Below, piece by piece: positions 8-517 of a stretch of 42,729 bases of DNA; the stretch's first letter is position 1; the number at the start of each line of letters is the position of its first letter. The position numbers were made by a program, and so were the translations under genes. Source of the stretch: Escherichia phage Alux-21. The notes beneath the pieces are model-generated. The model searched no databases, was not told the origin of the DNA, and saw nothing but the letters and a program-made list of their open reading frames with translations. The stretch is taken from the sequence record PQ589898.1, one strand, 5' to 3'.

Positions 8-517
8 TTAAACTGCGTTCTTTCCTTTGGAATTAAAAGGTATGTCGTCGTCAAAGTCAGTCGGAGGGGTATTCTGTGCCTGTGGCTGGTTGTTCGCCTG
101 ACGCTGCGGTTGACCGCCGCCACTGTACTGCTGGCGCTGTTGCTGCTGGCCACCACCCTGTTGGTTGTCGTTGGCGTGTGACAGCATCAACATGCGGCCA
201 TTCATGCCCACGTTGATTTCCGTGGTGTAGCGGTCAACGCCAGCCTGGTCCTGCCATTTACGCGTGCGCAGGCTGCCTTCAATGAAAACCTTGCTGCCTT
301 TGCGCAGGTACTCGCCAGCAATTTCGGCCAGCTTGCCGAATATGACCACGCGGTGCCATTCCGTCTGTTCTTTCTTCTCGCCGGTGGTTTTATCCTTCCA
401 GCTTTCAGTTGTGGCGATGCTGAGATTAGCAACCGCGCCGCCGCTTGGCATGTAACGGATTTCTGGATCGTTGCCTAAGTTGCCAATGATTTCTACTTTG
501 TTCAGTGAACCGGCCAT
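8..517 (-). CDS. ssb: single-stranded DNA-binding protein (SSB) with an 8-residue extension after the DDDIPF tail
   Basis: 169-aa ORF; OB-fold N-terminus ([23 protein letters not shown]...[37 protein letters not shown]), Gly/Gln-rich linker, acidic DFDDDIPF motif followed by NSKGKNAV before TAA at 8-10. Confidence 0.92.

Follow-up and report, generated by a model that had tools for sequence, protein, structure and literature searches.

A deletion scar as the probable source of eight residues beyond the SSB-Ct motif of a phage SSB

The SSB of Escherichia phage Alux-21 runs on for eight residues, NSKGKNAV, beyond the phenylalanine of its DFDDDIPF motif. We propose that this extension is probably a real deletion scar, left in a lineage that carried an endonuclease gene downstream of ssb. 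The DNA analysed (PQ589898.1, 42,729 nt, hereafter the window) is the complete genome of a Jilinvirus-like (Iiscvirinae) temperate phage, and Salmonella phage PT1 and Escherichia phage ep3 align with the greater part of it at about 93% identity. Judged from alignment with relatives, the stretch CCT TTT AAT with its four T appears to be inherited and does not look like a shortened run of five T. The tail itself appears to be composite: Asn would come from an ssb allele whose product ends in IPFN, Ser-Lys from the junction, and Gly-Lys-Asn-Ala-Val from the endonuclease.

The ssb gene occupies positions 517..8 of the minus strand and comprises 169 codons plus the stop; the list of open reading frames, Pfam and PHROG all support a gene for a bacterial-type SSB. 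Its product matches PF00436 (E 1.3e-38, residues 5-103), PHROG 44 (E 1.1e-62) and solved E. coli-type or enterobacterial SSB chains in the PDB (E 1e-57 to 2e-59), and its residues 1-161 share 92% identity with the nearest database SSBs. According to the Pfam and PDB alignments, the OB-fold domain for DNA binding and tetramerisation covers residues 5-103 (209..505, minus strand). A disordered linker rich in Gln, Gly and Pro can be recognized from the sequence at approximately residues 114-153 (59..178, minus strand). In an alignment of eight sequences the linkers of SSBs are variable and mosaic, the window's being like that of phage ECOO78, and the DFDDDIPF motif is invariant. This motif, the SSB-Ct, lies at residues 154-161 (35..58, minus strand), intact and no longer terminal. 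The coding strand ends in GAC TTT GAC GAC GAC ATA CCT TTT AAT TCC AAA GGA AAG AAC GCA GTT TAA, with the codon of Phe161 at 37..35, the extension at 34..11 and the stop at 10..8. The original prediction of eight residues, NSKGKNAV, past DDDIPF is thereby confirmed, both by the open reading frame 517..8 and by reading of the coding strand; the T-run, which it had placed at 32-37, is a run of four T at 38..35. As to the sequence features of bacterial-type SSBs, the OB-fold domain is present, and so are the low-complexity linker and the acidic DFDDDIPF. An SSB-Ct at the extreme C-terminus, with Phe last and its alpha-carboxylate free, is not found, since the motif is followed by eight codons before the stop. 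Of the four features that define the SSB family at the sequence level, the protein thus shows three and departs in the fourth, the terminal position of the SSB-Ct.

The 120 closest database proteins comprise 116 with IPF at the C-terminus and four with IPFN, and a tail longer than this one residue occurs in none. At the DNA level, the relatives fall into two classes. The canonical class, whose protein ends in IPF, reads ATC CCG TTT TAA TTCCAAAT, with TTCCAAA after the stop; it includes ep3, ECO1230-10, KA2-1, PT1, HeidiAbel, Arya and many Logan contigs, and has one or two terminator hairpins downstream of ssb. The other class, whose protein ends in IPFN, reads ATA or ATC, CCT TTT, AAT or AAC, and TAA GTCCGTTG, with GTCCG.. 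after the stop. It is known from five independent sources (KY705409, SRR14653397, SRR6504903, SRR32555621 and ERR14653847), that is, from phage ECOO78 and four contigs of unrelated sequencing runs. The end reads CCT TTT AAT TAA in ECOO78 and in the contigs L019 and L024, and CCT TTT AAC TAA in L020 and L025.

At all five IPFN loci (934-1440 in ECOO78, our locus L006; 1969-2474 in L019; also L020, L024 and L025), ssb is directly followed by a gene for a 141-aa protein. PHROGs assigns this gene to endonuclease phrog_2340 and also matches it, more weakly, to families of endonuclease VII and HNH; the search against Pfam found no family. The product ends in QWHAANGEGKNAV (NGEGKNAV), and a C-terminus of the form GEGKNA(V/S/I) is conserved in the endonuclease family, as seen in 120 homologues from unrelated phages. 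The strict linkage between the IPFN end and the endonuclease points to the ssb stop codon as the insertion site of the endonuclease, and the altered end of ssb may represent homing-site immunity for the endonuclease.

The window bears the marks of the IPFN class. Over the last 30 nt through the Phe codon it agrees with ECOO78 and L019 at 27/30 positions, and with canonical alleles at 23-24/30. The Pro codon CCT, present in 5/5 IPFN alleles and 0/10 canonical ones, is present in the window as well, together with the Ile codon ATA and, as in ECOO78 and L019, a Thr before DFDDD. Its CCTTTTAATT is identical to the IPFN class, and the Asn162 codon AAT (32..34, minus strand) would derive from this class, in which CCT TTT AAT is followed by TAA. 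The similarity ends after AAT T, where the window reads CC AAA GGA AAG AAC GCA GTT TAA versus TAA GTCC. The intact IPFN module is absent: CCT TTT AAT is there, but only the first base of TAA has been kept (AAT TCC). No open reading frame for an intact phrog_2340 endonuclease lies between ssb and the integrase gene of the window, where only the last 18 nt of that gene are left.

These 18 nt, AAGGAAAGAACGCAGTTT (window 27..10), match the 3' end of the endonuclease open reading frame at 18/18 positions in ECOO78 and L019 and at 17/18 in L024. In the relatives this 3' end is syntenic, lying about 476 nt downstream of the ssb stop, and a little 3' of it comes GTGTCACGTGACG, in the window as in the relatives. 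The remnant of the phrog_2340 gene (10..27, minus strand; AA GGA AAG AAC GCA GTT T) sits in the frame of ssb, and GKNAV of the extension therefore corresponds to the last five residues of the endonuclease. The new ssb stop, TAA, lies at 8..10 (minus strand), where the endonuclease gene of the relatives has TGA. Because an IPFN-type ssb end and an in-frame, 18/18 endonuclease remnant occur together, we consider the window to descend from an endonuclease-carrying lineage. The direction of change should be loss of the endonuclease and not its gain, as the GEGKNA(V/S/I) terminus is intrinsic to the endonuclease family.

A probable course of events starts with a Jilinvirus lineage in which ssb ended IPF-N-TAA and a free-standing endonuclease gene (phrog_2340, HNH/endonuclease VII-like) stood directly behind it. 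About 476 bp would then have been deleted, from a left breakpoint just behind the T of the ssb stop TAA to a right breakpoint 18 nt short of the end of the endonuclease frame. Two bases of the ssb stop, the intergenic region and nearly the whole endonuclease gene would have been lost in this way. The last five endonuclease codons would have been joined to ssb in frame by chance (1 in 3), resulting in the translation F-N, S-K, G-K-N-A-V and stop. The junction (28..31, minus strand), delimited by comparing the window with IPFN-type and canonical ends, has the sequence AATTCCAAAGGAAAG and contains the T of the former TAA, then CCA; the codons of Ser-Lys appear to be made up of this T, CCA and AA. 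There are three points against the deletion scar. Firstly, the 3-nt CCA is unexplained by a simple deletion with two breakpoints; it would be either filler or a short piece of canonical-type downstream sequence (TTCCAAA). Secondly, an in-frame fusion has a chance of 1/3, and the frame alone is no proof of the T count. Thirdly, the allele is a singleton, of which no second, independent assembly was found.

Two other routes to the extension were considered and rejected. Simple crossover between a canonical and an IPFN allele, inside their shared TTTTAATT, explains the loss of both stops and the presence of TTCCAAA, but not the endonuclease remnant; we keep it only as a possible source of CCA. 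A clean in-frame deletion from Asn to Asn presumes an endonuclease ending in NSKGKNAV, and such an end occurs in 0/120 best homologues, all of which have GEG or GEA before KNA.

A second small rearrangement would have taken out the terminator hairpin downstream. The window has AAATTGCCCACCAAAG where relatives have GA CCAAAG and a terminator hairpin, and no terminator-like site was found between its ssb and the convergent integrase gene (42375-42729 plus 1-7); in the related locus L008, positions 3493-3600 give three terminator-like hits, which represent two hairpins. Read-through transcription from ssb would run antisense to int. The integrase gene (41163..42374, plus strand, 403 aa) was taken from the list of open reading frames, and relatives have a 403-aa Phage_integrase gene at the same position. 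The intergenic region between ssb and the integrase gene (42375..42729, minus strand) continues across the window ends, as seen in the wrap-around alignment to L008, L009 and L014, which is near-identical from GTGTCACGTGACG onward. Since the window end runs on into the ssb-downstream spacer of the relatives, the genome is circularly continuous and was opened 7 nt after the ssb stop. The same continuity rules out a prophage junction, in which the window ends would be att sites and the tail host-encoded. The first 25 nt of the window are absent from GTDB genomes, and megablast found no match to the window in E. coli genomes. A 7-nt repeat near both window ends, CCAAAGG, is too short to interpret.

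The window has several further features. A tRNA-like element with CAU anticodon (42487-42560, plus strand) reaches 40.9 bits with the Rfam tRNA model (gathering score 29); it has several non-standard acceptor-stem pairs and is not called by ARAGORN. It lies about 110 nt past the integrase stop, in inserted sequence that the int-ssb spacer of L008, L009 and L014 does not have, and may be either the attP region, with a core derived from a tRNA, or a phage tRNA in decay. A regular tRNA-Arg gene (anticodon TCT) is found at 40782-40858 on the minus strand. In several relatives a 684-nt gene, annotated as SprT-like in KA2-1, stands between ssb and the integrase gene and is missing from the short spacer of the window. 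Mosaic differences from ep3 occur at about 5400-5740, 10150-10860, 26600-28770, 30400-31280 and in the int-ssb spacer, and probably represent different host-range and accessory modules. The ep3 DNA methylase, a 120-aa protein (ep3 31005-31367) and a 223-aa protein (ep3 41599-42270) have no match in the window, and the long tail protein (ep3 27255-29303) is matched at the N-terminus only, with 50%.

One alternative is a sequencing or assembly error. The true sequence would then be CCT TTT TAA, the protein would end in IPF, and the endonuclease remnant would be an untranslated scar. It is arithmetically correct, as had been pointed out in the original prediction, that one extra T places a stop directly after Phe. 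The allele is moreover unique in all collections searched, the closest SSBs overwhelmingly (116/120) end in IPF, and the remnant could lie in frame by chance (1/3). We nevertheless regard such an error as unlikely. Both allele classes have exactly four T, and a parent with five, CCT TTT TAA TTCCAAA, was found neither in IMG/VR nor in the approximately 25 loci read. A run of four to five T is also short for a systematic error. Comparison with ep3 gives no sign of error-prone data either: 45 of its 51 proteins match the window, each in a single in-frame alignment, most of them full-length and a few partial. Proteins as long as 682-785 residues are among the full-length matches. No match is broken up over different frames, and an assembly full of homopolymer indels can therefore be dismissed. 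The signs by which a homopolymer artefact is recognized are therefore lacking, given four T in both classes and no indel-type frameshifts among the 45 matches. An assembly chimera is unlikely as well, given that no more than 8 nt at the junction are common to the two classes.

The original prediction left the choice between a homopolymer indel or error and a real, tail-masked SSB. The second part stands in so far as a real genomic change is favoured, and "tail-masked" is a fair structural description of the extended protein. The altered partner interactions that it named would follow from what is published on C-terminal SSB fusions (PMC7293020). A slip in the T-run does not stand, in view of CCT TTT AAT already present in five relatives, the 18/18 nt endonuclease remnant, and the lack of both a five-T parent and split alignments; that one missing T would account for the frame is most likely a coincidence. 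Absence of the extension from relatives, which had been named as evidence against it, proved true of the eight-residue tail but not of its one-residue version, IPFN.

As to the rarity of the allele, no record of the exact 169-aa protein was found, the junction sequence did not turn up in IMG/VR, JGI metagenomes or GTDB genomes, and the gene-position index had no copy of the allele, which makes it a singleton. Its absence from IMG/VR is weak evidence, because the positive control, the canonical ssb end, retrieved only 3 contigs there. Among representatives of SSB clusters at 50% identity, 76/150 end in PF, and in 8 the DDDIPF is extended by 1-24 residues; as such a library is enriched for aberrant singletons, these numbers give a qualitative base rate only. 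Read-through tails of SSBs thus seem to turn up sporadically in sequence data. Many of the same representatives (P0241-P0390) are aberrant, with cases of duplicated OB folds and of TTIFRS-like tails that resemble a frameshifted DDDIPF, and libraries of this kind thus over-sample unusual or faulty ends.

What the scar would mean for the protein depends on the role of the tip. More than a dozen proteins of genome maintenance are recruited through the C-terminal tip of SSB as a hub, and the terminal Phe of this tip is regarded as essential: a pocket of the partner protein grips this Phe and basic residues contact its carboxylate. In the window the tip is capped by eight residues with a charge of +2. 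Since OB fold, linker and DFDDDIPF are intact, binding of ssDNA and formation of tetramers should be normal. Because Phe no longer offers a terminal carboxylate and the acidic tip is now followed by two lysines, weaker docking to SSB-Ct pockets (Pol III chi, ExoI, RecQ, PriA and others), or none at all, is to be expected. When GFP was placed directly on the C-terminus of E. coli SSB, ssDNA binding was unchanged, ExoI binding was not detectable and strand-displacement synthesis was not supported (Dubiel et al. 2020, PMC7293020), and our functional considerations thus relate to a large fusion in E. coli rather than to short extensions or to the phage of the window. In our view the most likely effect of the scar is none or a mildly deleterious one, and not a new function. 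The eight-residue tail is probably tolerated, because the IPFN relatives, including the viable plaque-forming isolate ECOO78, also have a non-terminal Phe; the lineage evidently tolerates a capped tip, presumably by means of the canonical SSB of the host. The best-matching solved SSB chain, PDB 7f2n chain A, reads DDDIPFH after the motif, evidently owing to a C-terminal tag, which implies that capped SSB tips are routinely made in structural work.

A selected function of the cap is a different matter. The capped tip, either IPFN or the eight-residue form, would be kept for altered recruitment of host or phage partners; it could, for example, keep host nucleases and helicases off phage ssDNA or allow evasion of host defence that detects phage SSB. 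Several observations speak for such a function: the form with one additional Asn persists in five diverged genomes with synonymous AAT/AAC variation, mutations in ssb let phages escape some defence systems (bioRxiv 10.64898/2026.02.22.705581), and a blocked C-terminus abolishes ExoI binding of E. coli SSB (PMC7293020). We still hold it to be quite unlikely. The eight-residue tail is a singleton, and a remnant of the neighbouring gene plus junction filler has the look of an accidental fusion. The IPFN end is strictly linked to the endonuclease insertion and may be its by-product, and deletion of the terminal Phe of T7 gp2.5 left defence activation unchanged (DARNA study). A broader version of this idea, in our opinion similarly improbable, is that capped tips, IPFN and eight-residue alike, form a functional class of phage SSBs. 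Such proteins, with Phe hidden, could coat phage ssDNA without recruiting the host interactome (ExoI, RecQ, RecJ, PriA, chi) or could poison mixed tetramers with host SSB, insertion of the endonuclease at the ssb stop being the route of their origin and spread.

Recoding, by which tRNA-Phe would slip by -1 on C-CUU-UUA (U UUU), bring UAA into the A site and let a fraction of the protein end in IPF, is very improbable. The sequence, like that of the IPFN-type relatives, does let tRNA-Phe re-pair perfectly after a shift of one base upstream, with UAA as the next codon. It lacks a canonical X XXY YYZ heptamer, however, and no stimulatory structure or Shine-Dalgarno-like element was noticed; in the zero frame the A site holds AAU, which is an ordinary sense codon, no sign of efficient slippage is seen, and spontaneous slips of this sort normally stay well below 1%.

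If the extension is a deletion scar, the naturally capped SSB of the window offers a ready test of whether the tip hub is needed when host SSB is present, and the isolated relatives with the additional Asn provide a second natural case. It would also exemplify how loss of a mobile endonuclease gene rewrites the end of a neighbouring gene of an essential type. For annotation it carries a warning that such an open reading frame should not be "corrected" by insertion of a base. As a singleton that is most likely no more than a neutral scar, the allele is of modest practical importance.

Comparison with known systems places the protein as follows. With the E. coli-type homotetrameric SSB (PF00436) it shares the OB fold, the disordered Gln/Gly-rich linker and an intact DFDDDIPF; unlike it, the window adds NSKGKNAV, which takes Phe away from the C-terminus and places two lysines after the acidic tip. 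The canonical Jilinvirus SSBs (ep3, PT1, ECO1230-10, KA2-1, HeidiAbel, Arya) have 79-88% protein identity to it, the same gene order and the downstream TTCCAAA context, but their genes end in CCG TTT TAA, with one or two terminator hairpins further on, and the window has neither. The SSB of vB_EcoM_ECOO78 (ARM70431.1) and its four metagenomic relatives share with the window the end ATA CCT TTT AAT, Thr before DFDDD, a similar linker and the genomic position; they differ in having the stop right after Asn and an intact gene for the 141-aa endonuclease, whereas the window has lost the stop and about 476 bp. Finally, the SSB-C-term-GFP of Dubiel et al. (2020, PMC7293020) resembles the window's protein in that the C-terminal Phe is blocked while OB fold and linker are untouched. 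There, an artificial folded domain of 27 kDa was put on the only SSB of the host, whereas here a natural peptide of eight residues extends an accessory phage SSB, with the host SSB also present. By this analogy, SSB-C-term-GFP would be the best experimental guide to the phenotype expected of the window's SSB.
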